From: Marsupella aquatica
Lineage: Eukaryota; Plantae; Marchantiophyta
Direction: 5' to 3'
NCBI GenBank assembly: GCA_973895155.1
Contig: OZ316895.1
Coordinates: forward strand, 16,906,170 to 16,970,169
DNA length: 64,000 nt
Part shown: piece after piece, positions 3,801 to 39,699 of the stretch
How the letters are laid out: each line of letters opens with the position of its first letter
Position numbering within the stretch: the first letter of the stretch is position 1
Notes under the pieces: generated by a model
Told to the model about the DNA's origin: nothing
Database searches by the model: none
The model's input: the letters and a program-made list of their open reading frames with translations, nothing else
Made by a program: the position numbers and the translations under genes

Positions 3801-5951
3801 TTCACTAAAAGCATTCAAATTATAAAATAGATATACATAAATTCTTGTAGATTGCATAGGTAAGGGTAAAGCTATGACCTACTGTGACACCCTATCATGT
3901 CACATACACGAGAAATTCGTCTCATGTGCCACCAGCCAAAATGCCTTGGTGGAGCCCAATTAGGGAACCACTACCCTACCTATTGCAGTACTGTCACACT
4001 GTCTATGCGTTACAGTCATGCTTGCACATCTGTCTTCCATTCTGTTCCGTTACACATGAAATCAGCGACGGATTACTTTCCGGCAAACCCCCCTGCTCCC
4101 GTATTACGGCTGACGCAAACCCCAAATACGGCAATGCGACGGCCGCCAGCCCCAACCCGGACCGGGCCGGGCGAGCCTGGGTAGCGAGGGCGGATCGGTG
4201 CCGATGGGCCCCACCGTGCCGGGTATTGTGTAACTGCAACTGTGGCTGGCACACGCCCTATCTTCAAAAGCCGGGACATTGGTAGCCGTTAGATTGAATC
4301 GGACGGTCGTGGCTTGATATGGGAGGCCCCCCACGTCACCATCTCTCGTGGCGACCACACGCCCGAAACTCTTCCCTGAGCCACTTTTCTGCTCGCGTCG
4401 TCCTCTGCCCCTCTCGTCCGGAATTTGCTCGCGTTTCTCTTCTTCTCACGGCAGACGGCTCTTCCTTCCCCCCCTCAGTACATAGCCTCCATTGCTCTGG
4501 GCTCTGATAGAATTGATACCAGGCGATGGTGGCCAGGGGAGCAGCGACTCACATAACTCTGTAGCGCTCCGCGAAGGGAAGATTGAAGCCTCTGTCTCAC
4601 GCATTTCGGTGGGATTGGTTTCACAGAAGAATGATTCGTTTGTCAACGAGAGAACTGTCGATCTGATCGAGGAGAGGAGAGGAGAGGAAAGGAGAGGAGA
4701 GGAGGCAGGAGAGGAAGTTTCATCGATTCATTGTTTCGATCGACTGACGAAGGCGAGCCAGGTCTGGAGAGAGGAAGTTGATGCACTATTGTGGCTGACT
4801 TGAGAGGATCAGAGAGATAGGGAACGTCATTTTCGTCGTGTTGGTGCTCGTTCTGCTGGGGGCTCTGAAGGTGGTGCTGATCGGTGTTGTTCTGGACCTG
4901 TTCCTGGATTGGCAGAACGAGTGATCATTGAGGAATACCTTTGTTCGCGTTGCCATTTCGTTTAGTTGTTCTTTGCCGAGGCAGTCCGCTGTTCAGAGTG
5001 GGGAATTTCTTTTTTTGGCCTCGGAAAACTGCACTGAGTGGTGACTTTCTGGATTGTACTTGTGCCAACGCCATCATCTTTTGAGCCTTTTAGATTCCAA
5101 GACTGCTTACTTCGCCGTAGAACCATTCTCCGTGGAAAGGTCGTTATTTTTGTAACTAACTCAGACGACCACCTGAGTTTTTCCCACTTTTTGTATTCAT
5201 CCTGAATTTTCAAAACCCTCTGGCCTAATACTAGTCTAGGAATCCTTCCCCGAAACCGCAATTTGGAAGAGAAGAGAATGAGTGCTGCTTTTGATTCTTC
5301 GTCAGCTGCTTGTTTAATCCATGTCAAGAAGCTGTAGATTGATCAATCTAAAGCTTACTTAGAGAGGGTTTGGTGTGCTATTCCCTGCTCCGATCATACG
5401 GCAAGTTTGTCGATCCATTCAATAACCTTTGAATCCTTCTCCTTTATCATCGTACCCTTTCGCTTCCTCTGCATGGTTGATGGTGTCCGTCTATCACATT
5501 GAGTTTTACCCGCTAGGCTCGGATACCGTGAGAAACCAGTGAAGATTTGAACCCGGTCTTGACCCTCTCCTTTCCAGATTTTTCAGAGTCAGCCTTTCTC
5601 GTATCCGAACTCTCCAATTTCTAGAGCGATTCCCATGCTTGCAGCCTTTCTTCGTTCCTCCTTTCCACAAGCAAAATCTTCGGAAGTCTACGCCAAACCT
5701 GACTGGCGTGACCCTGTCGAACTGCTTCTATCTCCGGCTACACAGCATGTCAATATGCTTTCTTTATCTTCTTGTCTAAGTTTCTACTTTTCGATATCTT
5801 TCTCGCTGGAGGGTGATATATAGCTGCGAAGATCGGCAACCAAAGTGCGGAACACCTGCCTTGAGTTTGCCTGCCATTGTCAATCGATTCTGAGTGGGTG
5901 CGTCATTCTCGTAATATCCAGCCATACATACCGCAGTGAAATCGAGCCAGA

Positions 5952-8167
5952 ATGGACGCGATGGTGGATGCAGCACCCGATTCGCCACTCCCGAGCAACC
6001 CACCAGCAGCTCGAGCAATCACTAGCAAATTATTACAGGAGACGCTCGATCCGGCGCCTCCACCTCCTTCAACAGCTGTTGTTCCAGGAGAGCGAGAAGA
6101 ACACGGTGTGTTGCCGACCCGTGGTGCCGACATCAACGACGACAAAGCAAGAACGGTGTCCGCCTCCAATAACAGCGTTGAAGATCATTACCAGAGCGCT
6201 CCATTTGCCAAATCGTTCGGGAGAGTAGCAGCTGGAGCAGATGTGGAGGCCCAGCTCCAGAATCAGGACCGCGGCGACGGTGATTTTGTGGGGGGCGCAG
6301 CCGAAGCCGGGGGCCCGGAGCCATGGTCTCAGGGCCCGATCATGGACGACAAAGCTCAGGGGCATTGGCACTACAGCCACAGATCTCCTTGGCTGAGAGC
6401 GCTAGTTTTGGGGGCGAACGATGGGCTCGTGAGCATATCATCGCTTATGCTGGGCGTGGGGGCGGTCAAGAGCGATGTCAAGAGCATGACTGTGTCCGGG
6501 CTGGCAGGCCTGATAGCTGGAGCTGGCAGCATGGCCATAGGCGAGTTCGTGTCCGTCTTCTCACAACGCGACACTGAACTGGTATGTACAATTCTGAACG
6601 ATCCTTGGGTGGAACTGTCATCGATTCTCATTCCACTCTCTCCCTGATGCTAAATCTTGCGGTAGAACCAACAAAATTGAAATTATGTGGGCGTGCATGC
6701 AACACCAATTTGGTCCTCAGTGGTCCTTTAGCTCTCGACTGATCTTAGGTTTCAGTCCTTCGTTGTATAACAATGGCTAATGCCATGATTAAATAGGATG
6801 CATCGACTATTGCTTAGAACGTGTTCAGAATCTTTGACACTGTCATTTTGTGACAGGCTGACATCGAGAAGGAGAGGCAAGAGCATGCAAAGGGCCCCGA
6901 AGCTCAGGCGCAAGAACTTGAGGAGCTGACACAAATTTACGTAGCTCGTGGCCTGAATTACTACCTAGCCAAGCAGGTACTGAATGTTCGATGATCCCAA
7001 CAGTTTTCCTTCACTCTTCTAAAGTTACGGAGTGAAATAATAATTCAGGACATTCCTTGCTGATTCAGCAACTGCACAATCATGATCTCCGTTTTATACG
7101 CCCTGACGAAAGCTGTGTATGTGCATGACTTATTTCAGGTAGCGGAGGAGCTCTCCAAAGTAGACGTCTTGAAAGCCCACGTTCGTGACGAATTAGGAAT
7201 CGATGTTGACGCTCTCTCCAATCCTTTGCAGGTGACACACTTTATATCTCCTATCCTCTCATGTAGCTCGATCACTTTGTTGAGTTAACGAGTGACATTC
7301 GATCTCCAGTAGGTTCCATCATGATGTCTCACGACCCTACTCACTAGAGGCAAGGAACAATCAGTCGAGACTTTAGCTGAGAGACATAATTGAAATGTGA
7401 AAGAATAATACGATCATGCCGTAGTGATCAATCTAAACCTTGGAATATCACCAGCAACAGACAGAAAGAGACCATGCCCACTGTTGGGTATTCCTGTCTT
7501 TTTCTTATTCTTATAATACTTTTATTTCCAAGGGAAGAAAAAAAATATAGTCGCACGCTTCGTTTTATAATCAATTTCATTTCATATTCATTCTATTCGG
7601 ATTATAATGTCCTCAGCTTCTTACTATTGATTTTGAATGTGCTTGTTCCTAAGATAGTTGCAGATTTTTAATTAGGATTACTGAAAACTAAAGGTGGCTT
7701 GTAAACTCTCTTTGCAGGCTGCTATAGCGTCAGCAATGGCTTTTTCACTTGGAGGGGGCGTACCTCTTCTTGCAGGTCAGTTTCACATTTCAACTCCAGA
7801 TCACTCTGATGAAATTACTCTAGTATATTGTCAAAATAAATAGTCATGTATTTACATGTTGAAAATGGAAATATGAATGTGACAAACTGGGACTGCAAAT
7901 GAAAAATTATTGATGCTTATGAAATTTTAACTAATATGTGGATTCTTTGGTTTTCCAGGTTCGTTTCTACAAAGTTATAGAACACGAATTATAGTTGTGG
8001 CAGCTATTTCATCCTTAACTTTGGCAACATTTGGTGCCGTGGGAGCACGGTTAGGGGGAGCACCAATGACAAAGGCTGCACTGAGAGTACTGTTTGGAGG
8101 ATGGCTAGCTATGGGCCTTACTTATGGAATCCTAAGATTATTGAGTAGCTGGCTGGAAAAATCCTAG
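5952..8167 (+). CDS. VIT1/CCC1 family vacuolar iron/manganese transporter (VTL/nodulin-21-like); 5 coding exons 5952-6581, 6857-6976, 7139-7231, 7718-7775, 7959-8167
   Basis: Motifs WLRALVLGANDGLVSISSLMLGV, GLAGLIAGAGSMAIGEFVSVFSQRD, ELGID..LSNPLQAAIASAMAFSLGGGVPLL, RVLFGGWLAMGLTYG. All introns GT-AG and in frame; stop TAG at 8165-8167. Start could be 5952 or 5961. Confidence 0.93.
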
Positions 8168-10680: not shown

Positions 10681-12843
10681 AAAGCCTTACTTCACTTTAG
10701 GCGTGTTAGCTATACCAAGTGTCTGCATCACAAGCACTGACTCCCCATCTCTCAAGTGGCTCTATAACTATGAACTTGAGTTCCTCTTCCACAAACAAAC
10801 ACTCTTTGGATATATAGTGTGCAGCACGGCTAACCTAACCAAGTTTGCGATTACAGTTAGTTTAACTAAATTTACAGTTGAATGTACATCTAAACCTAAG
10901 CAAAAATGTGTAACACTATGAAGGGAGAGCACAATGCAATCAGGTCCACCTTTCCTGTTTAGTTCCATTGCAAGAATTAACTAAGTGAACAGTGGTTAGG
11001 CGGGGAAGGGGCCGCTTTTATATGGGTGGGTGTGGGTAAACAGCATATTAACCACATTGGGGGGTTTTCACTTGCTTATCAAACGATTAAGATGACAACT
11101 ACATGATTTTCTCTACTAAATCGTTTGTATCGTGTACGGGGTACGACGAAGGGACGCTATTTGGATTATTCTCACACCAAGAATGAGTAGTTTAGTTTCC
11201 GCTCTCGGAAATGTTTTGATCAAGTCTACCAACTACTCCACCCCACAGCTTTTGATCAAGTCCTGCCAACTACTCTCTTCCCATTTCCACTCACGGTCAT
11301 CCAAAGAGTGTTGTCACCACCCCTACTCACAAGGCCGACCCAACCATGCAAGTTTCTTCAAATCATACAAGGGAGAACACAACTACGGAAAAGGAAGAGG
11401 GAGAGGAATCACACAAAAGAAATCCATCAAGTAAAATGTCCAGATTCATATCTCTTGGTGAAAGTGATACACATTGCATGAGTAACCCGGCCTCCTGCCG
11501 TTGCCCAACTCTTGCCTCACCGGACAATGAGTATGGCTTCCACCTCACTACTCTGAACACACTCTCAAGCTCCTAATGCTATCCGCTATCCTTCCCTTCT
11601 AACTTCAAAGTGAATTCCCCCTACACTACTCCGGGGCTCTCCCCCTAAATACCACTGAACCCCAAACACCCAAGCACCCAACAGCACTTGGATGCCGCCA
11701 CTTTCTCCTAGCGGCGCCGCCTAAAATCCTATCACCAACAGGTAAATGTCAACTAAACCCTAGTGGTATGCGGCACACACATATCCCTAAACCCTACCTA
11801 ACCAAGGGGCCGACGGTGTCTTCGACGGTGCGCCACAAAATCACTCCGTAAACCGCGAAAATACAAGGTACCCCACAATTGCCAAAACTTGGTGCCACTC
11901 TGATTGCACCTCTGAGCACATCCCTAGGTAGCCCTGTTCCTCCTGATCATGAATCCCCAAACCGCTCCCAAAATAGATATTGGACGACCAACTTATGACT
12001 GTTTTAGTATCCCGTACTGACCAACTTTGCGGGGCTCTAACTTTCTCATCCTGGCTCCGTTTGAGGAGCGCCGCCTCTTGTTGGAATCCGCTCTGCGAGC
12101 TCTTTCTAACGAGCCTGTGAGTGCCCACTTTCGAAAATTTTCAAAATCAAGAGGTCATACGACCAAGTCCGTACGACCACCCTAGTCCTCCTCCTCATGA
12201 CTCACGGTACCATGGCTTGAGCCCCGAGAGTTGGCCTCCTCATCACTCTCATCTGGAGTGAATACCACTCCGCTAAACAAGGACTCACTTGAGTCCACCA
12301 CCTCCTATCCTATCTATCTACCTTGCCTACCAGCCTCAATCCTCCTGATCGTCACCACTGGTCCGTGAAGAGAGCCCCTATAATTGTCAAAACTAAAATT
12401 TTCTTAGAATTCACTTCTGAAAACATATCTGAGGAACCCTCCTCTTCCTCATCACGGCTTGGTAAACGGTGCACAAAACGGAGGTCAAACGGCCAAGATA
12501 TGATCGTTTAAGTTTTTATGGGGCACCGTCTCCCTCCGTTTCGTCCGTACAACACCAGGGGGCCCCGGCTTTGCAAAACATGGATCACGGTTCCTCATAT
12601 GTGCTGCTACCTCCTCCTTCCCTTGCAAAACCGGGATCTCCTGTAGTACGGACGTCCGTACGGCCTCAAAAACCCCAGTATTCTCAAAAAACGTGATCTG
12701 TTGTATCTCCCCCGTCTTAGCTCCGTTTTGGCTGTGTAACACATCGTTGGATTTATCTCGGCGAGCTCTTTCCAACAAGCCCATAGAATCCTGATTTTGA
12801 GATGGCCAAAAAACTAATGTTCGTACAACCAAGGTCTGTACAC

Positions 12844-13451
12844 TATCGTGCGCATACACATCGCTACACAACATACATCGCTTGTCACACATATCCAAGC
12901 ATAGTCACAATCTAACGACACAAACCTAAGAGAATGATCTACAAATAGAACCCATGTCCATACATGCCCAAAACCCACAATAATCTTCTTCAATAGTGCA
13001 AATCAAACAACGATCGATGCTAATCCAACAACGATCCCATCTGAGGCGATCACACATGTATGACAAGCCCAACGCACCTTGTGCTTCAAGGAATCCATGT
13101 TACATGCACACAACCTGGTCAGCCACACCATAGCCACCAAGCCATGCTCAAAGGCTCAACATTGAAAGATGAGGCCTTTGAGCCAACACAAGGGGATCGA
13201 TAACTATCCCTCACACCAACTCAAACTAAACATAGTGCTCATGTAGCACACATACAAAACCTCTATACCTAGATAGTATGATATACTTTACTACCACTCT
13301 AAATGGTGTGACGGCTGTCGTGCGCATACACATCGCTACACAACATACATCGCTTGTCACACATATCCAAGCATAGTCACAATCTAACGACACAAACCTA
13401 AGAGAATGATCTACAAATGGAACCCATGTCCATACATGCCCAAAACCCACA
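12844..13451 (-). repeat. 3' terminal repeat block A-B-A (A = 136 bp, B = ~333 bp)
   Basis: The two A copies (12844-12979, 13316-13451) differ at 2 positions; B (12981-13313) differs from 22994-23329 by ~10 substitutions and 1 indel (hand count). Confidence 0.92.
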
Positions 13452-13462
13452 ATCGCCCCCCT
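13452..13462 (-). other. Polypurine tract
   Basis: Minus strand reads AGGGGGGCGA-T immediately before the TGTGGG start of the inner A repeat. Confidence 0.75.
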
Positions 13463-13626
13463 AGCTGGAAGTGAGGTCCCCTAACTCTAGCTAGCCATGA
13501 GTTCTACAAGGTTGATATACACCTTTTTAGGTGTGAAGATCAGGAGGCCGGGTGCAAGTGAGCCCCATCGATCACCTACCTGCAATCTATATCTTCCATG
13601 AGAACACAAATGATAACTAGTCGGCA

Positions 13627-15860
13627 TCACCGACATTGAGGACACAACCATGATCCACTAGGAATCATGTGCAAGGGTGGTGTCAAACACGACACGTGCC
13701 ATCCTCTAGAACACCGATCACAAATCAACATAGTAGCTGCTCCCTGAACAGACCCACACAACATACACTTCAAGCCAGCACGAACATGTGCCAAACTTGG
13801 ATCCACAGTACCATCAATGTTTGGAAGATGACATGGCGCACAATTACGCACATGATCCTTCCAAACCATACCATCACGTCTTTCCAATATAAGGACTCCA
13901 GAAGGCAATATTTCACGCACACGTAAGATTGTCCGCTCTGCGGTCACATCAAGCGTCGTTGGTGCTGTCTGTTGCAAATAAACATAATCGCCAGGATGAA
14001 ATCTTCTAATCCTCGTGCGATAACCTCCTCCACGAATAGTAGCATACCGTAAAGTATCACGATGTTGGGCAATAGCAAGGTTGTCAAAGGCCATGGGCAT
14101 GACTCTCTCAAAAACTTGTGCCCTCTCTGAACAAACCTTGACCCAAACATTTGAATCATCCAAATCCACAACAGTTGCAACATCACGACGAATAGCCGTT
14201 GGCAAATCTGGCTCTCTACCATAGAGCAAGAAATAAGGTGAGAAGGATGCAAGTGATGCTTGTCGACTAAAACGGTAGCCCATAGCTAACCAAGGTAGTT
14301 GGAGATCCCAGTCTCCCAAATGACCAACCTGCAAGCCATACTTACGCAATCCTCTCTTCATAGTTTGTACAACTCTCTCTGCCAATCCATCTGCCTCAGG
14401 ATGATCGCGAGAAGTAGTACAATGATCAATCAGAGCTTGCTCACACAAACCCTCAAAATCTCCACGGAATTTGGTGCCCTGATCAGTCAACACCTCAGCT
14501 GGTGCTCCAAAGTGACTGAGTACTCGATCCAAAAATGTGGTAGCCACTCCTCCACTAGCTTTATCTGGCAATGCCACTAGTTCAATCCACTTGGAGAAGT
14601 GCTCCACCATAACCAAAACATACCGATTGTGACGTTGGGTAAGAGGCAATGGACCAGCAAAGTCCAAACTCCATCGATATCCCAAACCCATGATCGGTAG
14701 CGGATGCAACTGGGGAGTGGGAGCATTGAACGATGCTCGCACTCGATCACAAACCACACACTTAGCTATCAATTGTTGGACATCAGTGTGCATACCACGC
14801 CACCAATATTGTATCTGCAGCAAGCTGTAAGTGCGCTTTACACCAAAGTGCCCTAACTCTTTGTGCGCATGTCGCACCAAATGTACTCGTTGTGACGGTT
14901 TTGGTACAACCAACACCTTTCCATCACGTAGTACCCTCAAAAGATGGTTTCCTTCCCATCTAAATCTCTTGGCTCTTTGTAGAACCCTATCACGCTCCTT
15001 AGCATCAACATTGCCACCAATGGAGCCAACACGCAAATATTCCAACACTCTCACATCGTTGTGAATATCTTGCTGTCCAAAAACTACATCACCAACATCC
15101 ATATCGGAAGACTCATCATCTACTCTATCCAATGAAGTAGAGTCTACATATCCACTACATACTGGCACCCAACAAAGGAAAGCAGACGCATGCCATCTCG
15201 ACACCATCTCCTTATCCGTCTTATCATGCCATCGGGCTCCAGTCTCATCCTCTTGACTGGTACATGGATTGCGGTTCAACCCATCCGCATCCAAATTCAC
15301 TTTTCCAAGTCTATGCACAACCTGAAAATCATACTCCTGCAACAACAATGTCCATCGTGCAAGCTTGCCTCTAAGCTTGTCAGACTCCATTAACCACTTG
15401 AGAGGTTGATGATCAGTGATCAAGGTGAACAAATTACCAAACAAATAGCAACGGAAATGTGCCACAGCCCACACTGCTGCCAAACACTCTCCCTCATAAG
15501 AGCTATACTTAGCCTCTGCTGAATTGTTGGATCTACTGGCATACGCCACAACAAACTCATTCCCCTCATCATCCTTCTGAGTCAACACTGCTCCAAGTCC
15601 TACTCCACTCCAATCAGTGTGAAGCTGAAATGGTTGCCCTGAAATGGGTCTTCTCAAAATAGGTGTTGACGCCAGTCTTTCCTTCAACTCCTGGAAAGCA
15701 TGCTCCTGGTCGTCTCCCCAAATCCACTCCTGATCCAACTTAGTGAGTATAGTTAAAGGTTTAGCAAGCTAGTTAAATCCTTTAACATACCTCCTATAGT
15801 AGTTCGCCAATCCCAAGAATGCACGAACTCTGCTCACATCAGTAGGACGAGGAATCTGTG
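13627..15860 (-). pseudogene. pol: pol 3' part: RT connection, RNase H, integrase (HHCC + DDE) and C-terminal PHD finger
   Basis: FQLHTDWSGVGLGAVL..YASR..YEGECLAAVWAV..TDHQPL (RNase H); HKELGH..CVVC; SLDFAGP..TDQG..GLAER (DDE core); CMLC..CDRCSRGWHVSC..WLCPQC (Cys4-His-Cys3). One stop at ~15769 and a frameshift at ~15860. Confidence 0.93.
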
Positions 15861-16756
15861 TTAGTAATGGCCTCCATCTTAGTCTGTTGCACACCCAATC
15901 CTCCTGGGTAGATAGTGTGGCCCAAATACTCAATCTTTTCTTGAAAGAACTTACACTTGCCGGGATGGAGCTTCAATCCATGTTCCCTCAATCTCTCAAA
16001 CACAATCTGCAAATGTCTCTGATGTTCTTCCACAGTAGAAGAATAAACCAAAATATCATCAATATAACATCTGACAAAATCCAAACCTGCAAGGATTCGA
16101 TCCATGACTCTCTAGAACTCAACTGGTGCATTCTTCAACCCAAATGGTAAGAAGAACCACTGATACAAATGATCTTTCCCATAAGAACCAATCCCCCAGA
16201 ATGCTGTCTTGGACCTGTTAGAATGCCTAATTGGCAACTGATGGTACCCCGCTCTGAGGTCCAACAAACTAAAAATCCTTGCATGCCCCACTGCATCAAA
16301 GATCTCCTCCGGTGTGGGCATGGCATATCGATCAGATTTTGTTTGACAATTAATAGGCCGGTAATCACCGCACATTCGCCTATCCGTGTAATTGCCATGC
16401 ACATCCTTCTTGGCTGGCATCACTGTGGCAGATGCATACTCTCCGTATGAAATCTCCACCAAACCAGCTTCCAACAAATCCTGAGTTCTACTCCGGATCA
16501 ATGCCCTCTCCATATCACTATATCGATATGGTCGTCGAAAGATTGGCACATCACTAGCCAATTCAATCTGAATACCAGGGTCCTTCAATGTTCCCAAATC
16601 CTTCATGCTAAATGCAGAATAATTCCAGTAACTCTTCAAGAATTGATACATTCGACGTCTCTCACCCCCTGTCAACTTAGGGCCAATTTGTGGCTCCCAA
16701 CTCTCCATCAAAGCTGTGATGTCTTCCTTTGGGGTTGAAGAGATAGTCGGTGGTTG
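15861..16756 (-). pseudogene. pol: Reverse transcriptase domain (Ty3/Gypsy type)
   Basis: RRPYRYS, RMCGDYRPIN, LDLRAGYHQ, LPFGLKNAP..F*RVMD, YIDDILVYS, KLHPGKCKF..YLGH; premature TAG at 16112. Confidence 0.93.
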
Positions 16757-16909
16757 CTATTTAGCAACAATTTGAGCAGTCCCAACCTGCTCAACAATCT
16801 GTCCTGCCATAGGTCTATGGACTGTCTGCTCGCCCCCAACTATGGTCGCTATTGTCTCAGTAGACCGCAAGCTCACCAATGGACGATCAGTAACACCAAA
16901 AGAGCACAT

Positions 16910-19030
16910 CCGCAATTGTTCAGCTAATCCCAAGCTGATAATCCAAGTCAAGCAATTCAAATTGTGGTATAGCCGGAAGAATTAAAAGTGACACTTTTCA
17001 CTTAAAGACCAAGGTTTCGATCCCTTTAAGAACAAAATAGGAATGGATTGAATGATTGTAACTGTTTTGAAGACTTAAGAGTATCACTCAACCAAATCTT
17101 CAGACAAAAGAGAAACAAATGGATAAACTAACAAAATGAACAGAAAAGATTAATTCCCAAGTCATGGATTATGGAAAAGCTTTTAGAACCAAGGTCCAAT
17201 GGATTGAATCTCCACTGCCACTCCTTCAAAAAGGATTCTGGTCTTATTGTGTTAACAAGATTGCAACAAATCTCGCCTCAATTGCTCTTCTCCATCACCA
17301 TGAAAATATAAACAGAAAGGATAAATGCTCACCAACACCAAAGTAGCTTTCTGGTGACCGATACAATGATACTCACTAAAATGCCGTCAACATGGATAGA
17401 ACTTCGGCGATACGCAACTCCGATCTATCACTAGTGGGTATGCCAAAGTAAGGGTAACGGTACTAACTATTCTGAAATCAGAATCTTGCTCCTTTTTATC
17501 CACATTATCATTGAATCCTTAGCGATTCTTGACCCACAAGCAATCCTAATTTGAATTCATATGATCTTGGAAATTTGTAATGAAACACTCAGGCACCAAC
17601 AGGAATAAATTCATTACATCACAAAGGAAGTGTTTTACTTCATTCATAAATCATTCTCGAAAGCAATGATTACAAAGGAAGGAGGGAAACTTGCAAAAGT
17701 TTGCAATACTGAATACAAGCTTCACTGAAAAACAAAAAGGAAAACGATAATCTTATAGGTCTAAGTGGAGCATAAAAAGGGGAAATGAAAAGTCATGCCT
17801 TTTCAAAACTTAGAAAAAAAAGGTAATAAAAATTGAGTACTAAACTAAGGTAGAAAAAGATCACTAAATAACTAGGGTAAATGGGTAACAAAAATCTGTC
17901 TTCGAACTTCCGCCGAGTATCGTCCTTCATAAGTTTGGTCTCCATGGGACACCTCTCAGAAGCGTCCTTCATAAGTATTGTCAGCAAGGTAAAGTTGGGC
18001 ATTTGGGTACCAAAATGCAATTAATTTGTGAACTTTGCATCTTATTTCCATCTTCCATTGATTTTGCGAAAAATTCAGGTGTCACACAAATCCATGGCTT
18101 GACCAAGGACTTGGCAGCGTGAACTCTCTGACACAGAGGCAACCGCAGTAGTGCCAGTCAAAAATCCCATAGCACGCTCTCTTTCATCAGCAGTAGGTTC
18201 CACTAACTGCTGTAGAGTTGTATCCCAGACAAGTCCAGGCCCACCTGCTCTGAATGCATATGAAACAGAATGACTCACAAAAGTGGGTAATGCACAACGT
18301 GGGCGACCAACTACATTGACCACTGCCAATGGAGGTTTGTCAGGCTAGGTCACACCTTGTGCACGACGCCCTGGATCCAAAATATCATCCACCACCAAGG
18401 CTGTTGAGTGAGGAATGCTATCAAATGCTCGCTTCAACACCTCACAAGGTAACAAATTAGTCCACCACAAGCGTGGACGATGTGCACAAGAACCCACACG
18501 TGCAGCATCCAATAACACAGCAGGTCCAATCCAAGACTTAACCTGATGAACGCTGGCAACAAGTTGATGACGATCATCACCCAATAATGGCACATTCTCC
18601 AAAATGTAGGCAGGGGAATGTGTCTAATGCAACTGAAGATGACGCAACACCCGTAACATCTCCCAAAACAATGCAGATCTTGGATCATGAAGTCCATGTC
18701 CAACTCCAGCTCTAGATTGAACCTGACATGGCCAACCCGCAATCACCAAATCAATGGGGCCAACGCGATCCAAATGATCCACCCCCAACAAGGAAATATC
18801 AACTGGCAATGCATGTTGATAACCACGAACGGCATCCACTGGCAACAATTGTGGATAACGTTCAACCAACAATGCCACATGACGTAATGAGACTCTACGT
18901 GCTGTCTCATCAGTCTCCACATACAAATAACGGTGCACAGTCCGAATGCCGGCTTGAAGAATGGCAGCCAATCCAGTGCTAATTCCACCAAATAAATCCA
19001 ACAAACAAATACCCTCATGTGGATATTGCC
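16910..19030 (-). pseudogene. C5 cytosine DNA methyltransferase domain inside pol (split by the solo LTR, with premature stops)
   Basis: Motif I LLDLFGGIS; motif II YVETD; motif IV IDLVIAGWPCQ (catalytic PC); motif VI YILENV; motif VIII AHRPRLWWTN; motifs IX/X ERERAMGF..TT...RCQVLGQAMDL-NCL. All lie in one frame that continues into RT. Confidence 0.9.
16963..18086. mobile_element. Solo LTR of an unrelated family, nested in the methyltransferase domain
   Basis: 1124 bp with TGTG...CACA termini and a 5-bp TSD CAAAT (16958-16962, 18087-18091); removing it restores the reading frame GQAMDL|NCLTWII. Confidence 0.9.
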
Positions 19031-19059
19031 ATGCAATAGGAGTAGTATCCAGTGGTGAA

Positions 19060-20248
19060 GAGTCACTGGTCCATTTGCAGTTGACTGCTCTGCTCCTGAT
19101 TGCGGTGTAAAAGCATGACGCCATGCATCATGTATCAATCGGGCCGCACTTTGTGGCAAGGCCTGTCCAGTACCCCATACTGGTGTCACAACACTATCAA
19201 TGGGCAATCCATGCATCAAGTGTTCCTCATGTGTCTCCTCCACCATAGGAACATTTGCTGCATGTGCGTTACCCTCAATCAAATCATCAGCTCCAGTAAT
19301 CAAACTACTAAATGTTGCCAAAGATAATGGTGCAGATTTGGGGCCTCCAACAGGTCCACTAAATTGCACTGGCAATTGGCTCAATCGAGCATCTCCACAT
19401 TGCCAATCGGGTCGGTACGACATCGATTCATTCCAAAAATCAAGAACAAATCCCATAGGATAGAGAACTGTACATCCCACCAAGACATCATATGACTCAG
19501 CCTTAGTCAAAATAGCTTGAGCCTGGATCCATGAGTTATCCTTTAAATGATCCTCCTGAATCCTAAGTTCAAGTGCTCGTCGAGTGATATGCTGTGTGGG
19601 TGTAGGTCCTCCCAATGAAGTCTGAATGGGAAAGGGACACTCCTCCAAATCATCATAACGCAATCCCAATCCTCTTATCGCAGACTTACCCAACATCAAG
19701 GGCTGAGCACCAGTATCTAGTAACACTCGCTCTGGCTGGTATATTGCTCCAGAAGGCCCAACTAATCGGAAGATACCACTCCGATTATCCAATGATATGA
19801 TGCTAGGTTTAAACCTAGTCCTCTCATAAGCAGGGCGCGCTGGTAAATCTATCAACCTTGCTGCTGCTGCATGCCATGTCTCACCACTAGAAATAGGTGG
19901 ATTCAACTCCACTGCTTCAAAATTGGGCGTTGCTTCTGCATGCGAAGCAACAGCTGGAGTGTCCTCGCATAATGTGGCCACCAATCTAAACACCTCTGCT
20001 GGACTAACTCCCAATGTCAACATATCCGTAGTTGAAAATAATGGCGTGCGCACTATAGTAGTGGCCGCCCCCAACAGGGTACTTGTCATCCCTGTCACAA
20101 CATCACTTGAATCCGCCAACTTACCCCCACCTGGGTTAGTCCAAACCGGATTCATAGAGGTAGTTTGAACTGCCTCTAACAATGTAAATGATTGGGGAAG
20201 CTTCGTTTGACGACAAATATCCCCTCTCTGAGGATCCAACTCTACCAC
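19060..20248 (-). pseudogene. Aspartic protease region of pol
   Basis: RVLLDTGAQPLML (DTG active site) and YDVLVG; same frame as gag. Confidence 0.8.
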
Positions 20249-21631
20249 TGCTCCTCTAGGCTCAAGGGCTTTTGTTGCTCCTCAAGTTAAAGCTGCTGAT
20301 GCATCCACATGCGCAGTACCACACATAAATCCCATGGTGGCAAGATCTCCATCAGCTCCATAAGAGGTTGAAGCTCCATAGGATGTAGAAGCCCCATCAC
20401 TAGCAGTAGGTCTAACTTGAGAACTAGCCATTGCAGCTAGTTGTTGCTCCAATTGAGCAATCTTTGCATCCTTAGGATCTGTGGTAACGGTAGGAGCAAC
20501 ATCACCTCCCTGTCTTCCTACATGTGGTATGCCTCGACCACGTCCACCACCTCTACCTCCTCTTCCCTGATCATACGCACGTGGTCCTTCCCGTCGTAGT
20601 TTAGGATGAAGTACAAAACACCTATCTTTGGTGTGTCCAGCAACTCCACAATGATCACATTGTCATTGATCAGGTGTAGATGCCCCTCCTTGCCCCCTAT
20701 TATCTGGGCAATATCTTTGTGCATGATCCCCACCACAAGTCCAACATCCTGATTGTTGTCCAGCATAAGAAGGCACACGTCTCTGACTAGTAGATTCCTG
20801 TGTTGTAGGCTTCTCTCTCTGGCTCTTACGTGCAGTAGGTTGCAGTGTGGGCGTCGATGCAACCTTTGGTGCTTCCTTGGAAAATCCGGAAGTCACCACC
20901 TTCTCATTCACCATATTGAGCTCAATGCGCTCAGCAAGTGCAAAAACTATAGCCAATGTGGGATCTGAATCCCTCAGTAGAGTGGCATCTGTCACTCTAC
21001 GACGCAACTCCCTATCTAGAATTGCATACCAAAATTGGACCGCTTGGGCCTCTATCACTCCTTGTGTGACCGTAATCAACCTTCGCATACGAGTGTATGC
21101 CTCACGTAGGCTCTCTCCAGTCTTGCGTTGGAACTCCTGAAGACCCTTCAACTTATCGGTTCTCACACCCTGGTAGTTCTGCTTCAATACTTGAAAGAAC
21201 TTCATCACAGGGTTAAATGTTGGCGCAACTCCACTCCCAGCCACAATCACACCGGTAGGAGTAGCGGTGGATGCTGATGGAGTGCCATTCTGGCTAGTGC
21301 TGCTAGAAGAAGCCGCAGTTGTAGCAATGGGTTGGGAAACCACACTTGTGCCATAAGTGATGGACACATAGTTTGGTGACCAATGCTGTCTCCATGCCTC
21401 AATATCCACTAAATGAGCCTTTCAAAACTCATGGTAGTCATCCATGGGTGGCCCCTCCAAATGCTGAAACAACCCTTTCCAAGCCATGAAAAGTGTAAAC
21501 AATGTGGCATTACGCATTATCTGCATATCATACCACGTATCAAACTCTTGGATGAAATTATCCAAATCAATCGTGCCAACTGCACCAGAGTATCTCCTCG
21601 GTCCTTTCGTTGCCCCATACATCTCCTCCAT
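20249..21631 (-). pseudogene. gag: gag with two zinc knuckles and an RGG tract (premature stops)
   Basis: RYSG..DLDNFIQEFDTW; FQRKTGESLREAYTRMRRL (retrotransposon gag); CWTCGGDHAQRYC; CDHCGVAGHTKDRC; GRGGRGGGRGRG. Start codon is tentative. Confidence 0.82.
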
Positions 21632-21876
21632 ATCCCACAACAATGGAACAGTCACTTGATGTCGAGGAGAAGTGGCTACTAAGTCCTCGTCAGAATCACT
21701 ATCTGAAACCCCACTTGTGACCACTAACAATGTCGTCGGCCAAAATTGCACTCCACTCCAAGTGAAACCAGATCGTCGTCCCTCGGGTAACCCCGTATCA
21801 CTAGAAGACTCCGTGATGACCAATTTTCCCTAAATGGTCACCATCAACTCACCACTATCAATAATCAACCAATTGG

Positions 21877-22356
21877 CGGAACGGTGTTCCGCGGATACCC
21901 ATCACTCAATCGCGGAACGGTGTTCCGTAATGCACTACCACCAATCTCCAAGACAATTGACGGAATGGTGTTCCGTAAACTGCTTCGTTGTGGGATAGTG
22001 TTCCGCAACCCTCCATCACCAATAGCCAAGCTAATTGGCGGAATAGTATTCCATGAGCTGCCTAGTAGTTGCGGGACAATGTTCCGCAACCAACCGTTCT
22101 TCACAATGCAGACGAGATGTGTAATGGGGCAGACCAATCTTCAATATGCACCCACGACGGAACAGTGTTCCGTGGAAGACCAATCTTCCCAAAATTATCA
22201 CAACAAAATGGTAATCTGTACCCGATCATTCTCCAATATGCACTCACGAAGGAATAGTATTCTGTGGAAGACCAATCTTCCCAAAACTACCACAACGGAA
22301 CAGTGTTCCGTAGTCAACCAATCTCCAATATGCCCTCTCAACGGAACAGTGTTCCG
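21877..22356. repeat. Array of ten 15-bp pseudo-palindromes, consensus CGGAACAGTGTTCCG, in the retroelement 5' leader
   Basis: Copies start at 21877, 21913, 21961, 21991, 22039, 22072, 22158, 22250, 22296 and 22342. Confidence 0.85.
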
Positions 22357-22993
22357 TGGAAGACCTTCACAACCTTGTTGTTGCGAAAACCCCGCCGCAA
22401 TTCCCGGACAAAGCACTGTTCACTAACTTTGTTATTTTCCTTGTGCCCTAGGTCGCCGCCACACCTCGCCTCTCCGCGGTGCGCTATGTCACCGCAGGCA
22501 ATGCAATTCGCCAACATTCAACGTCACTTTCTTTGAAGGAATGCACTGTCCGTCAACATCAAACTTGATGAATCTCAAATCCGCGACATACAACTTCAAC
22601 GATCAACTCCCGATTGGGACCATCCCCGAACTAGAATCACAAACAATCACAAGTCTGACCGACTTGCCTTCACAAAACCGCAGAAAATACTCTTAGCAAT
22701 CCGTGCACAATAGTCGATGGCAACTTCCAATCATCGACCGGACACTCAGTCTTCCAAAATGCTGCAATGTCGATCGATGCGAACCGCAACTCCAAATGCG
22801 CAACTCAACAACTCAAAGCTCCGCATTCACTCAAGCTTTCTCAACACCAACTTGGAACAGATCGAGATACCAGCGATCCATTCAACAACAAAACCCTATC
22901 CGAGATACCACGAATCGTCAACAACAAAACCACAACAAAATCGAACTTCTGTTTGCACAATCCGTACATCAGAATTTGAAGCTGATCTTTCAA

Positions 22994-23329
22994 TGTAATC
23001 TTCTTCAATAGTGCAAATCAAACAACAATCAATGCTAATCCAACAACGATCCCATCTGAGGCGATCACACATGTATGTCAAGCCCAACGCACCTTGTGTT
23101 TCAAGGAATCCACGTTACATGCACACAACCTGGTCAGCCACACCATAGCCACCAAGCTCATGCTCAAAGGCTCAATATTGAAAGATGAGGCCTTTGAGCC
23201 AACACAAGGGGATCGATAACTACCCCTCACACCAACTCAAACTAAACATAGTGCTCATGTAGCACACATACAAAATCTCTATACCTAGATAGTACGATAT
23301 ACTTTACTACCACTCTAAATGGTGTGACA
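22994..23329 (-). repeat. 5' terminal repeat B (336 bp, TG...CA)
   Basis: Direct repeat of 12981-13313, followed by the TSD ACAC. Confidence 0.92.
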
Positions 23330-23455
23330 ACACACGTTGAAAGCAAGCACAATAGGGAAAGGGTTTAGGGTTTAGGAATGGGTGGGAACCTCACAAGTGA
23401 GAATAGAGAAAAAGGGGAGGAAGAAAGTGTGGGGGCCCCTTCTAGTAATGTGTTT

Positions 23456-23578
23456 TTCTACGGAGTGCCCCTTCTACGGATGTATTCTTCTACGGAGTGT
23501 TCTTCTACGAAGTGCCCCTTCTACGGAGTGCCCCTTCTACGGATGTGTTCTTCTACGGAGTGCCCCTTCTACGGAGTG
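23456..23578. repeat. Minisatellite of TTCTACGGAGTGCCCC-like units, preceded by telomere-like GGGTTTAGGGTTTAGG at 23361-23376
   Basis: About 8 units of 14-17 bp sharing the TTCTACGG(A) core. Confidence 0.8.
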
Positions 23579-25327
23579 GGGTAGGAAAATTGTGGGAAAC
23601 TACGGATTGAGGAAGGGAAATCTCCACGATTGTCCTTTTACGGGCGTTGAGGTCCCTCAAGATGTCACTGTTTTATATAGACCTAAAATCAACTAGAGAA
23701 CCTCAGTTTCGCATGGGGCTCATTGAGGATTCAAAATGAATCCAAACATGACCATGTTTGGAATAGTACTAGCACAGCAACGTCTGTTTTAAGTTTCAAT
23801 GTTTTCTATATTTTGGTCATTCTTCTTGTTTTGCGCCTTACGTGGAGTCTCCGACCAGTGTTAGGTATTGCTCTTAGTCTTGTGACTCATGAGATAACCA
23901 TAGTTAGGCTAACTCGGGTTAGGACTTAGCTAAGGTTAGCAGTATGTAGTGCTATTGTGTATATTGCCAGGGCTGGTGCCAGCCCCTGATGGAACTTAGG
24001 CTCATTGTTACGGAGCTAGTTGAGAGATAGGGAGAGCTTGCGCTGTGGATGCTTGGTATGGCCGGTCGACCTAGAGTGCAGTAAAGCTCTTGTGTGTTCC
24101 CGTGGACGTAGCCTCATGTGGAGGTGAACCATGTATCTCTCTGTGTTGACTCTTGTGCGTTGGATGGTTCATGGGCTTGCAGTTGCGAATGTCATTTATG
24201 CTTAACAACCAGCCCCCACCCCTCCAAGATGCCCACACATTGGCCTCCAAGTCCTTGGGCTGCCTTTTGGCCTCCTTGTACCCCCTCAATGGCTCCATTG
24301 TCATCCATCACCGCCCAACACCCCTCTCAACTCCAGCCTCCAATTGTCACATCAATTTATTAGAACGAACAAAAACTAAAAAAATTTAAAATCCAAACAC
24401 TTTTGCTACACCTACTTGTCTTTCTACTTATATATGCAATTATAAGTTATCACTAAGTTACTACCGGATTTGGGGCCTTGTCACAGGGGTCAAGACATTC
24501 AAGGAATTTGACTAAAGACCTTAAAACCAATATGTTAATAAATCACTAACCTCATCAAAATGTATGCAATAAACCATCTGTACACTGCTTACAATCACTA
24601 GTAGAAAAAGGGGTAGATTATGACCCAACTACTTAGGACTCAAATGACGCCAATAATTTGCTAGGACTCCAAATGGAATGGAGTCATTAATTTACAACAC
24701 TCCCTTAATGACTAATGTCAAAGGAGTATAGCTAAGTCAAGAAGAATTCAACTTTTTAAGATACAAAATAAATAATTTTTCCTATATTGAAGGAGATTTA
24801 AGACTTAGGATTAGGCTGACAATCTTAGATTGTCTTGGTAGGCAACTAAACAGCAGGTGGCAGGATAGACTGAAGAGGAACAATAAGGAACCGGATTGGT
24901 ATGCTTTGGGGGCCATTATGATATGGCTTTTTATGGTGTGTTTCTTTGTTGGCCGCTTCGCCCTCAGCAATGGCGGCCTCTTTTTCTTTGCTTGGGTTGT
25001 TTTTGCCCCCTTGTGTGGTTTTGAGGCCTTGCCCTTAAAAAAAGATTTAAGACTAAAATACATCGTAGGTGATGAGGGGATCTATGTAGTAGTGAGAAAC
25101 CCGAGCCCACAAAACCCATCCCACCCACACATATACCCTACACACCCCTATGTGTGGAGGGGGGATTGGGGCCTGTCAAAGTACAACCATAAGAAAAGTT
25201 TTATGACCAAAGTTTGTTGGAATGTAAGATTCTTACAGGGCATGCATTTAGGTAGCCCATATTAAGGGGTTATCTCCTCACCATGAAAGAGTTTTAGTGT
25301 AGGGTAACCCATCCCCAAGAGGGGGTA

Positions 25328-29147: not shown

Positions 29148-29669
29148 GTCGGCGCTGTCTGTTTGAATTAGCGCGGTCGATGGTGCTCTGAGCGCTGCGT
29201 TTCAGGGCCTCTGTCGTGAGGATTCCGTGTGGATTGATTTTTCCTGGATGTCCGTTTCTGTAGAGGTTAGTTAGGGCCTGCCATCGTGGGACTCTTTTGT
29301 GATCTGTTCTGTTGCCGCTGCTTTGTTCATTGTATGTTAGGCTCTCCTTTGGGGTGGGGGATTGTCAGTGTCCTTGAATCTGATAGCGTTCCCTAATTGG
29401 AATTTTTCACATCTTTGTTGCGGGAATCACTTTCCCGTTCAGTATCTACTGGACCATGGTCTCCGGCTCGCACCTCTATCCTTCGTCATTTTTTGTAATA
29501 GCTTGATGGAGTGTCTGGATGTTGTCCCTGATTGTAGTTGATTTCGGTGGTCAATGTGATCTTGGTGATCTTACCAGAGCTGAGCGAAGCCATTCAATTG
29601 GATATTATTTTATCAAAACAGAGTAAACCGGAAAGCCTACTGAACGGAAAGAGACGTAGGGAGGACGGG

Positions 29670-32327
29670 ATGGCAATAATCTCAGAGTACGAGGATGAGA
29701 CGGAAGTGAAGAAGCCGACGCCTCCTGCGGTAGCTTCAAGTAAACCCTCTGCGAAGCCGACTTCCAATTCATCCTATGCTGCGGCAGCTCAGAGAGGGCA
29801 TTCTGCGGCGCCGTCGCCTGCGAAAGCAGCGGTCATAGATTCATCAAGCCCAGCGGAGGTTTTAGACAGGGCTACCAGTAGTAGCGATAGCATCTCTGGA
29901 ATTCACGATCAGGTTTTGAACGACTTGCTGCAGGAGCATGGAGGTGAGCCCTTCGAGTTATTGAGGACAGTTTTTGAATTTCTTGGGAGGAAGTCCGAGC
30001 TTTTGTCCGGAGAGGGAGTGGTGACTAAAGTAAATGATATAATCTGGGATCTCAAGCAAAAGAGAAAGGCGAAGAACTTGGTTCCCGAAGTGCCTATCGC
30101 AAAATCCTTCCCGGTGACTAAAGAACCCGAACAAGTGAAGAAACCGGAGCCCATCCAGGAGACTGTGAAACCATCTGTATTGTCTAGCCCTGAAGAGAAC
30201 GGACTTAAGGAAAAGCAAAAAGGGATCGTTTCTGAAAATAAGGAAGCAGTGGCAGAAGCCCCTAAGGAAGATGAGGAGATGCCAGACGCGTCCGAATCTA
30301 AAGCCTTCGGTACGTATGCTTCCTTTGTTAAATCCTCATGTAGTGCCTTTCTATCTCCGTCTGCCTTGACCTGTGTCTAACAGCATCACCGTTACTTTGA
30401 TATTTGTGTGAACCTCCAATGTAATTTGTGTGCTACTCCACGACGGTCATTCTCGGAGATATGCATGGATATAGTTGTTCCCATAATACGGCTGGGAAGT
30501 CTCATAATTCACACAGTAGTTTTGTAGCTTCCTACTTGCTTTTGTGCTTCTGGATGTAAAATGTCAGGAGCCGTGTTAGTATTTTGAACGGCTGCTGTGC
30601 AAAGTGGATGTGGTTGTTGGTCGTCCTGATTGGTTAGTCTTGTGCCTTACAGCCCCCAACAGAGGAAACGGTGCAGACTTGGACAAGTACAAATGGACAC
30701 AAAGTCTGTCCGAACTGACTGTGTACATCCCTCTTCCGCCTGGCACAAAAACTAGAGGTTTGACGGTTGACATAAAGAAGAATTTCTTGAAGGCTGGTCT
30801 GAAAGGCCAACCTCCTATCCTTGAGGTGTGCACCAATTCTCACTTAGTCATAGTGTATCGGTGAGATTAATGCCGAGCTCTGGTTCATGAGTTTTCTCTA
30901 GAATGTAGAAGCTTGAAAATCTTTCACTAGAAAGGATCGTAACTTAAGGTACTGTAAATGATCTGCAGTGCAAGCTAATGTTTTTCTCCAACTTGTAATG
31001 CAGGGCGAACTGTTCAACCCAGTTCGTGTGGATGACTCTGTGTGGAGCATAGGTAACTATCCAAGCTGAAGTGATGCTATTGAAGTGTCTTTTATGATAT
31101 CCTCTTTCGGATATTGTTTAAAACGTGGGAATTGCCGTGCTTTCTGGGACTCACGCTCTTCACATTTTGCCTGTATCCGTAATTTCGTATTCCTTATTGT
31201 CTCTGGATTGGGTCGATGAGACAACACACGTACTCTTTCATGCTGTGATTGATCATTTTCACTGAAAGGCTTTATCGCTACATTCAATGTGAAGTGAGGA
31301 AGGTATAGAACTGTTGGTGTTCTAGTGGAGTTCCTGGACAGAAGCGGGGTCTAGCGTCGGCTACCAATAACGTACTCGCAAGAAGTCCATTTTCTGTGGT
31401 TGTGAGGTTATGGTAGACTCAGCTACAGGGGGTGCATCTCTCATCATGCGATACGGCATGGTGCCGTGCCAAATATTCACTGACGTCACAATCTCTTTAA
31501 CCTGGCAGAGGATGGAAAGGAACTATCAATCCTACTGACGAAAGTGAACCAGATGGAGTGGTGGAAGACTGTCGTCAAAGGCGAACCAGAAATTGATACT
31601 CAAAAGGTGGAGCCAGAGAACAGCAAACTGACAGACTTGGACCCTGAAACAAGACAGACAGTGGAGAAAATGATGGTATGAAATTGCGACGTTATGGTTG
31701 CTTATCTTTCATGTCAGGCGTTTTTTATATTTTCTTCTTCGTTAAGTGTAAGAGATCTTGTCATTCACTGTTCTCAAGTGAGTGTACCACCACAATGTCT
31801 GCCCGTATGTGTATTATGCACTTAGCCTAGTCGATCGGGCCTTCGAATTTTGCTGTACATGTTCATTAGCCGTATACGAATTTAGTTTTGTGCGGTGTCC
31901 GCGTCGTCATCTTCAGAAATTTGTTTTTGGTATGTCATCTGATGGTGCTTATTGACATTATTTGGTCCAAAATGACCCTCTTGTTTGTTTTCGTACGGAG
32001 TACCAGGCTAGCAACAAGTAATTCTGGATTAGTACTTGGTAGTCCTGTATAAGCCTTCAAATAAAGAAAGCTAACTTGTTTCCTGTGTTCTTCAGTATGA
32101 CCAACGACAAAAGGCCATGGGATTACCCACAGCAGATGAGCAGCAAAAGCAGGACATATTGAAGAAGTTTATGACGCAGGTAACCATTTCCGTTTGCCAT
32201 TTTGGGGAGCGTATGTAGTTGAATATGGCATGCCAACATTCACAGAATGATTTAGTAATTTCTCACCATTTCCTTGTAACGTTTGCAGCATCCAGAAATG
32301 GACTTTTCAAAGGCCAAGATGTGCTGA
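29670..32327 (+). CDS. BOB1: NudC-domain chaperone BOBBER; exons 29670-30309, 30653-30825, 31004-31052, 31509-31675, 32096-32179, 32289-32327
   Basis: MAIISEYE N-terminus; [20 protein letters not shown]; [28 protein letters not shown]; [36 protein letters not shown]; [10 protein letters not shown]. Introns GT-AG and in frame. Confidence 0.93.
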
Positions 32328-39020: not shown

Positions 39021-39699
39021 TGCACCTTGCTCCTTATTGACAGCTGTTCCTCGAGCGAAGTGAGGGGTCTCCCTATCAAAATTGTTGTCCGTCCGTCCGC
39101 AGGGCCGCCATTGTCTGCAGTGAGAAATCGCCCGAGACAGGGGACGAGACCTGGCGAGGATAAAGTCCCTAATTTTGCTAGGTTGCTTGATAGAGCAAGA
39201 TCACCGGGAGTCCCGATCGCCGCAGAGACGCTCAAGCGAACTGCTTTGCCATCATTGCAAACAATTCAGTACGTCAAATTCAAGATCAATACAAGATAGA
39301 GTATTTGTAGAGCTCAGATTCCTGTGCTGAGCTTTGACAGCATGCTTAGACCAAATGTAGTAGCCGACGAGAAGGAGGCAGAGCATGAGTGGAGCTAAGA
39401 TTTCTTTGAGCGAGCTTGAATGAGAAAATGCGTCGACCTAGTTACTAGTTACGTAGGACTGGAACGAAAGAGAGTGCTTGTAAAGCTCACATCTTCGTGC
39501 TGAGCTTCGACAAAATGCTGACACCAAATGTAGTAGTAGCGAACGAATACCTGACAGAGTGTGAGAGGAGCTAAGATTCTTTGAGCCAGCTCGAGTGAGA
39601 AAGTGCTTCGACGTAGTTGCGTTCGTCTCGATCAAGACTGAATGTCAATTGACAGGGCTCAGACTGCTGCTGCGCGGAGCTCCAACAAAATGCTTCAGC

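Follow-up and report, generated by a model that had tools for sequence, protein, structure and literature searches.

The closest described system is KnitGypsy-Dnmt3 of the alga Klebsormidium nitens, a Ty3/Gypsy retrotransposon that carries Dnmt3 in its Pol and has DIRS-like repeats (de Mendoza et al. 2018, PMC5890265; this and the other papers are cited here from parts of their text). The same work describes SymbioDIRS-Dnmt3, the Dnmt3 of which methylates CG in yeast. Tf1/Sushi elements and the plant Tcn1 chromoviruses of mosses and clubmosses have no tRNA primer site and possess, downstream of the 5′ long terminal repeat (LTR), a self-complementary stretch of 10 bp or more (Neumann et al. 2019, PMC6317226), the integrase of foamy virus cuts 2-LTR circles at their palindromic junction (Delelis et al. 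2005, PMC1180852), and the host DNMT3 of non-flowering streptophytes combines a DNMT3-type catalytic domain with a C-terminal DUF3444 (Yaari et al. 2019, PMC6453930). With these systems we compare a locus of Marsupella aquatica, located in a stretch of 64,000 nucleotides (contig OZ316895.1; hereafter the window, to which all positions refer) on which an earlier note had been made from the sequence alone. Positions 12844..23329 (minus strand) are occupied by a decayed Ty3/Gypsy retrotransposon with the order Gag-protease (PR)-DNA methyltransferase (DNMT), a stop, and reverse transcriptase (RT)-RNase H (RH)-integrase (IN)-PHD, its repeats being arranged as A1-coding-B1-A2-B2. It probably belongs to the same lineage as KnitGypsy-Dnmt3: both have Gypsy domains, an unrearranged and intronless Dnmt3 under purifying selection and the A-coding-B-A-B layout, and the match of the repeats makes the link with Klebsormidium, already drawn in the earlier note, stronger than was proposed there (PMC5890265). 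The hosts differ, an alga there and a land plant here.

The reading that we favour, and hold to be rather probable, combines a DNMT3-like enzyme made at the level of Gag, a stop that is read through, end-joined complementary DNA (cDNA) opened inside the LTR, and a DNMT predicted to methylate the new DNA. Most ribosomes would stop after the DNMT, so that the enzyme would be produced in the same amounts as Gag; cut free by the protease, it would enter the particle in larger quantity than RT. The RNA would start inside A and prime itself in the Tf1 manner, the plus strand would begin at the purine tract, and the product would be B-A-coding-B-A. The ends of this cDNA would then be joined, either in a 2-LTR circle or because RT, or the plus strand, jumps from right end to left, and integrase would open the upstream B|A site and insert the DNA with a 4-bp duplication, yielding A-coding-B-A-B. 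Only this long form has A at both ends and could go round again, and therefore the A2|B2 joint would have to be remade in every cycle. A plus-strand jump from right to left end would use the upstream site only, and for this reason would explain both the asymmetry (the inverse form is unseen) and the exact joint. Acting in cis, the DNMT may methylate this cDNA, and the unusual free intermediate or the fresh insertion would then already bear the mark; the integrase, for its part, may be steered by the PHD finger via histone H3 tails. These are the weakest steps, methylation of the cDNA being the least supported of all.

The methyltransferase seen in the earlier note is confirmed. All the C5-methyltransferase motifs that the earlier note had placed between protease and RT (LDLFGG, GWPCQ, ILENV, AHRPRLWWTN, ERERAMGF and LGQAMDL) lie in a single minus-strand frame (19049-18087), i.e. 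in a DNMT3-like C5 cytosine methyltransferase domain (18087..19049) with motifs I-X unrearranged, the catalytic Cys at 18728-18726, and two TAG stops (18626-18624 and 18347-18345). With X at both stops the domain matches Pfam PF00145 with E 1.4e-10 and 41.5 bits (cut-off 22), a check that the earlier note had proposed, and its best matches in PDB are DNMT3A (E 2e-10). A profile built from 28 family members ranked DNMT3A (1.5e-23), DNMT3C and DNMT3B first, with DRM at 3e-10 and HaeIII and HhaI at 2-3e-6; the top Foldseek matches of a model of a natural domain (L009) were all DNMT3 (TM 0.55-0.59). The resemblance to DNMT3 suspected earlier is thus borne out, and the family domain is nearer to DNMT3 than to DRM, DNMT1/CMT, DNMT2 or bacterial enzymes, as judged by profile and Foldseek score rather than by a tree with host DNMT3. 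The AlphaFold model made from L009 has a mean pLDDT of 64 and is poor across the target-recognition region, and therefore allows no prediction of sequence context (CG or CHH). The features that define DNMT3, namely unrearranged motifs I-X, the catalytic Cys and ENV, are all present. In host DNMT3, too, the catalytic domain is not rearranged as it is in DRM; in contrast to the host enzyme, the element domain is longer, stands in the Gag frame and showed no DUF3444 match in the seven element proteins scanned (PMC6453930). The element domains are intronless.

Motifs IV, VI and X vary hardly, if at all, across the family. Between two related loci (L028 and L029) the ratio of nonsynonymous (dN) to synonymous (dS) substitution was 0.13 in the DNMT, 0.12 in the protease and 0.08 in RT, against 0.56 in the linker; between the window and five close loci the DNMT had dN of ~0.25 and dS of 1.5-2.8. 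Such patterns indicate that the domain is under purifying selection in the family.

If the replication model is right, the DNMT might still have another role: it could act on the host DNA into which the element inserts or on the whole genome in trans, or it could bind nucleic acid in the particle without catalytic function. We consider this unlikely, although it has several points on its side. Gag-level expression would yield surplus enzyme, one clade has WEC for WPC in motif IV, 26 of 150 representatives (fragments included) do not match the catalytic Cys pattern, and the Klebsormidium domain showed no activity in yeast (PMC5890265). Against it stand the catalytic pattern kept in the other 124 representatives, the near-invariance of motifs IV, VI and X, and the constant linkage of the domain to Gag or Pol, an argument for action in cis.

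The terminal repeats, all read on the minus strand, carry the central part of the argument. Repeat A1 (22997..23329) begins with the TG attachment end, is ~97% identical to A2 and likely holds the promoter, R and U5. It is directly adjoined by the primer-binding site (22985..22996), which is without the tRNA-type TGG start; the predicted self-primer (23177..23186) is complementary to this site, with a match of 10 bp in A1 and 12 bp in A2, and is likely the 5′ end of the RNA. None of 200 control probes reached the match length, and the self-primer is paired in the RNA fold. At the other end the polypurine tract GGGGGGCG (13454..13463), where relatives have a similar G-run, lies directly before repeat B1 (13316..13453); B1 starts at the tract, ends in CA and has two differences from B2 in 138 bases. 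The internal attachment-site junction B1|A2 (13308..13321) reads CA-GC-(T/C)G and is near-palindromic. Repeat A2 (12982..13313) ends at the same base where A1 meets the primer-binding site, and B2 (12844..12981) follows A2 without intervening bases and forms the 3′ end of the element. The A2|B2 joint therefore sets the end of the primer site against the start of the polypurine tract. The element has the PR-RT-RH-IN order and DDE integrase of Ty3/Gypsy, and TG...CA ends with a target duplication in the usual range of 4-6 bp (4 bp in the window and in five loci). Two full LTRs with outer ends that are the integration ends were not found in it; the order is A-coding-B-A-B instead, and the TG...CA ends and the 4-bp duplication map to a CA-NN-TG site inside the LTR.

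The same arrangement recurs among relatives from metagenomes. Permuted layout and 4-bp duplication occur together in L037, L062, L048 and L058, and a 4-bp duplication is also found in L026, which has the order A-coding-B. The A2|B2 joint matches both boundaries exactly in the window and in the L037 family, whereas in the L048 family it deviates by ~3 bases at most, and the LTRs of the three families sharing the permuted layout have no BLAST match to each other. At 24 upstream ends B was never found before A (0/24), and the downstream ends comprised 11 with B-A(-B) and 10 with a lone B. Self-complementarity of 10-17 bp right after A1, with its target near the middle of A, was found in all seven elements compared, and for each of them none of 200 control probes reached the match in at least one A copy; in L048 TATAAAA stands ~30 bases before the self-primer site. 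Priming thus looks to be of Tf1 type, 7/7 elements having self-complementarity of the length used to recognise such priming (PMC6317226). Unlike Tcn1 and Tf1/Sushi elements, which have chromodomains, those described here have a PHD finger, a DNMT and permuted repeats, a comparison made by features; in the main text of the Neumann et al. survey the terms PHD, methyltransferase and Marchantia have no occurrences (PMC6317226). The likeness to foamy virus lies in an integrase that cuts a palindrome made of two attachment ends; there the palindrome is the joint of linear ends, whereas here it lies inside each LTR, and its cutting would give a permuted genome (PMC1180852). Within families, the identities of B1 and B2 revealed no element-specific pairing, so that the case for copying B2 anew in every cycle is made by the comparison between families.

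A short form ending in a single B was observed in ten loci (L014, L018, L026, L032, L040, L046, L075, L076, L079 and L086). Possible sources are a 1-LTR circle, cutting at both internal sites, recombination and assembly collapse; the ten loci were not counted in favour of 1-LTR circles, because recombination between B1 and B2 or assembly collapse would look alike.

The layout is also that of split-direct-repeat DIRS elements of PAT/Ngaro type (PMC5890265), and copying might proceed in their manner: the RNA would begin within A1 and finish within B2, both ends would be restored on the internal B1|A2 junction as template, and B2 would be inherited through RNA with no joining of ends in each cycle. 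Such copying would explain directly why only A-coding-B-A-B occurs. The self-primer site nevertheless follows A1 and the purine tract precedes B1, and the A2|B2 joint falls at just these boundaries, exactly or within ~3 bases, in spite of the unrelated LTRs. DIRS elements moreover use a tyrosine recombinase, for which domain scans gave no match here, the rve and H2C2 domains being found instead; the window element has a DDE integrase, TG...CA-type ends, a 4-bp duplication, a primer site and a purine tract. We regard DIRS-like copying as distinctly unlikely and retain end-joined cDNA opened inside the LTR as the preferred account.

Between methyltransferase and RT the window has an in-frame stop (16759-16757) in the context AAA-TAG-CAA-CCA (16751..16762, minus strand). 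The 66 codons after motif X that lead to it (16760..16957, minus strand) match the C-terminus of the relatives P0002 and P0070, and the closest relative, P0002 (86% identical), terminates at the residue where the window has TAG; the Gag-PR-DNMT proteins of most relatives likewise stop short of RT. Among 34 close loci the stop is present in 29 (19 with TAG-CAACCC, 8 with TAA-CAACCC and 2 variants), one has TAC, four are without the region, and a Gln codon was found in none; conservation at 16759 is thus established from relatives and not from the host's own copies. The readthrough consensus of tobacco mosaic virus (TMV) is UAG-CAR-YYA with adenines at -1 and -2 (PMC3159437), which the window context fits. 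The DNMT closes the Gag-protease frame, and it is likely, from sequence, that RT-integrase is made via readthrough, which would be at a few percent of the Gag level. In the 40% sister clade no stop is conserved at this place, scattered stops occurring in 8 of 21 in-frame loci, and one open frame runs from DNMT into RT; the same holds for P0071, P0209-P0214, P0216 and P0218. KnitGypsy-Dnmt3 differs likewise, its authors stating one frame for DNMT, RT and RNase H (PMC5890265), where here a conserved stop stands in the same frame.

The claim of the earlier note that the domain is a polyprotein module running in frame into RT holds as regards the standing module and the common frame, and fails at the in-frame TAG before RT. 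For the same reason the domain can be called ‘built into Pol’ only if the stop is read through: it ends the Gag-protease frame in the clade of the window, and belongs to one open frame in the sister clade.

Alternatively, the stop might not be read through, and RT-integrase might be expressed by reinitiation or from a spliced RNA. An ATG six bases past the stop in the Sphagnum-like clade would suit reinitiation; the window has no ATG there and does have the full readthrough-type context, L028 and L029 have TAG-CAG-TTA at the stop site, and the frame is maintained across the stop in undamaged copies. This alternative accordingly appears to have a poor chance, and readthrough remains the preferred explanation.

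The element belongs to a large family. Protein searches gave 55 longer proteins and 207 of similar length (120 of them listed), with identities of 60-86% in many cases; the hosts named among the matches listed were Marchantia polymorpha, M. paleacea, Riccia sorocarpa, Calypogeia fissa and three Sphagnum species, and these matches included no vascular plant and no protein named as from Klebsormidium. A search from a distant member returned 69 proteins and added Closterium and Monoraphidium, a cluster look-up added Hariotina, and a full hidden Markov model (HMM) search found 549 clusters at E<=1e-30. In metagenomes 310 of 600 stretches examined were related, of which 80 loci were kept (the L-numbered ones above), and the order Gag-PR-DNMT-RT-RH-IN-PHD recurs in them unrearranged wherever the contig is long enough. 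In four public runs from the host species or close kin, contigs extend over the DNMT just as over RT and integrase, and the stop at 18626 is absent from these contigs (42 in run X1). The domain is consequently carried by other members of the family, as the earlier note would have it, and is not peculiar to this copy. That a fragment of host DNMT3 was captured once, the repeats being rearranged after insertion or by the assembler, has practically no chance, even though this copy is defective and repeats can be distorted in short-read assemblies: it is refuted by a domain order common to hundreds of relatives and by the family-wide layout, by the lack of introns and of any match to DUF3444, a feature of host DNMT3, and by target duplications flanking the permuted unit in six elements.

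Trees of the DNMT (66 rows) and of the integrase (36 rows), built from element sequences apart from host DNMT3 and K. nitens, placed all elements with DNMT before RT in one clade (support 99 in both). This PR-DNMT clade contains bryophyte and Closterium sequences, and the window groups with Marchantia, Calypogeia and Sphagnum. A second order, RT-RH-DNMT-IN-PHD, was observed in chlorophyte-type elements (P0044, P0245 from Monoraphidium, P0227 from Hariotina, and others). Elements with DNMT between RNase H and integrase, the chlorophyte ones included, fall outside the PR-DNMT clade in both trees, and the best 150 representatives comprise 90 with RT-RH-DNMT-IN-PHD, 15 in which DNMT precedes RT and 45 consisting of the domain only. 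The DNMT has shifted position within the polyprotein at least once. KnitGypsy-Dnmt3 has been presented as an acquisition of the K. nitens lineage (PMC5890265), whereas its relatives here occur in bryophytes, Closterium and chlorophytes; this spread, and two domain orders that track both trees, point to one old acquisition and not to a Klebsormidium oddity.

Three further observations concern the family. Viral contigs yielded six phage-type methyltransferases only, with 30-43% identity over short stretches, and four of the six served as outgroup of the DNMT tree. P0110, with a DNMT of this family 50% identical to that of the window, is filed in NCBI as Candidatus Obscuribacterales and is probably eukaryotic DNA in a metagenome bin. 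The 40% sister clade (L046-L086), which comes from the same kind of assemblies, has WEC for WPC in motif IV, and the same repeat layout and self-priming.

Several points weigh against the favoured reading. Enzyme activity, RNA, particle and circle are all deduced from sequence. A symmetric 2-LTR circle opened at the other site is expected to give A-B-A-coding-B, which was seen in 0/24, so that an extra asymmetry is needed; L051 has the permuted layout without a duplication, the duplication of L032 has one mismatch, and those of L066 and L084 were not scorable. In the largest clade TAG/TAA-CAA-CCC is one base off CAR-YYA and an ATG follows two codons on, which makes reinitiation possible there. 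The loci come from few, related assemblies with near-duplicates included, so that their counts are not independent, and the trees were made with FastTree and have local supports only. The CpG depletion of the element (0.45-0.52) lies within that of other repeats (0.29-0.55) and gives no sign of self-methylation, nor did CpG and CWG ratios set the element apart from other repeats. The negative yeast assay of the Klebsormidium Dnmt3 belongs here as well, a result that its authors call inconclusive (PMC5890265).

The remaining coding domains, on the minus strand, are typical in part. The Gag region (20282..21829) has two zinc-knuckle-like motifs, is homologous to the N-termini of P0004 and P0064, had no Pfam match and contains three stops. 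The aspartic protease (LLDTGA, 19300..19800) matches Asp_protease_2 with E 0.003, below the cut-off; a frameshift near 19055 separates it from the methyltransferase frame in this copy, the two being in one frame in relatives. RT (YIDD, 15839..16756) has one stop and a frameshift at its 3′ end, and RNase H with the DDE integrase and its H2C2 zinc finger (13800..15768) has Ty3 Gag-Pol as best PDB match (E 1e-42). At the integrase C-terminus, where the domain scan gave no chromodomain match, stands a PHD finger (13630..13797; PF00628, E 3.8e-10), the nearest PDB PHDs of which are those of CHD4, KDM5B, ATXR5, PHF21A, KDM5A and UHRF1. PHDs of these proteins are readers of H3 tails unmethylated at K4. 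The main text on KnitGypsy-Dnmt3 mentions a PHD finger 0 times, and priming, target duplication and an internal attachment site are not discussed in the parts of that paper cited here (PMC5890265). The PHD finger, the PR/DNMT frameshift, the TAG at 16759-16757 and terminal repeats other than two ordinary LTRs go beyond the earlier note.

The copy is dead: Gag, DNMT and RT contain stops, the frame shifts behind the protease and again behind RT, and another insertion is nested within it. The latter is the solo-LTR-like sequence recognised before (16963..18086), with TG...CA ends and a 5-bp duplication ATTTG (18091-18087 and 16962-16958), and the reading frame beyond it continues motif X. Insertion-free contigs were found in three of the four runs, with a near variant in the fourth, the anchoring sides being short (18-24 letters). 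The element is flanked by 4-bp duplications (23330..23333 upstream and 12840..12843 downstream; GTGT on the minus strand), and its ends read TG...TA, the last base pair being TA where relatives have CA. Contigs joining 12839 to 23330, with four letters in common, occur in 4/4 runs. The element is inserted within another high-copy repeat (12000-12843 and 23330-24000), the flanks of which join across the empty site in all four runs; since these flanks are repeat sequence of high depth in their own right, the joint was not taken to prove that the insertion is polymorphic. Tandem repeats of ~46 and ~92 bases with a GGAACAC..TTCC core occupy 21865-22400 in the 5′ untranslated region and are possibly a packaging or regulatory array. 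Elsewhere the window contains host genes for an intronless-looking phosphomannose isomerase (46191-47585, minus), a kinesin (34855-39200, minus), a NudC-like protein (29538-30380, plus) and a VIT-family protein (5940-6647, plus), and a diverged duplication (44078-45623 and 57588-59691, ~13.5-14 kb apart) with 78-90% identity in pieces.

In the literature searched, outside of which lie most subscription papers and Repbase-type libraries, only PMC5890265 describes such elements, and nothing was found on their presence in land plants, their readthrough or priming, or an internal attachment site. PMC12344493 cites that paper, and the consulted parts of PMC9033089, PMC8557442, PMC10952607 and PMC11982613 add nothing on such elements. 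A DNMT in a Gypsy element was therefore already known from one alga; new are its occurrence in land plants and chlorophytes, the position of the enzyme at Gag level and, most importantly, the evidence of integration through a site internal to the LTR. A wider version of the reading, put forward tentatively and as somewhat doubtful, is that of an old, green-plant-wide Gypsy lineage in which the attachment sites moved inside the LTR and end-joined cDNA became obligatory, in which a Gag-level DNMT3 would methylate the intermediate, possibly marking the site to be opened, and in which the PHD finger would replace the histone-reading ADD of animal DNMT3.

LTR circles are usually treated as dead ends. 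If the favoured reading is true, a family whose self-copying form needs joined ends would be a natural case of integration by the circle route with a DDE integrase. In bryophyte annotations, copies of such elements raise the apparent number of DNMT genes, and LTR finders built for paired LTRs would likely overlook them or set their boundaries wrongly. The question raised in 2018, what purpose a transposon's own DNA methyltransferase serves, would become testable, because Marchantia polymorpha has many copies with long Gag-PR-DNMT frames (e.g., Mp4g09160 and Mp8g17980).

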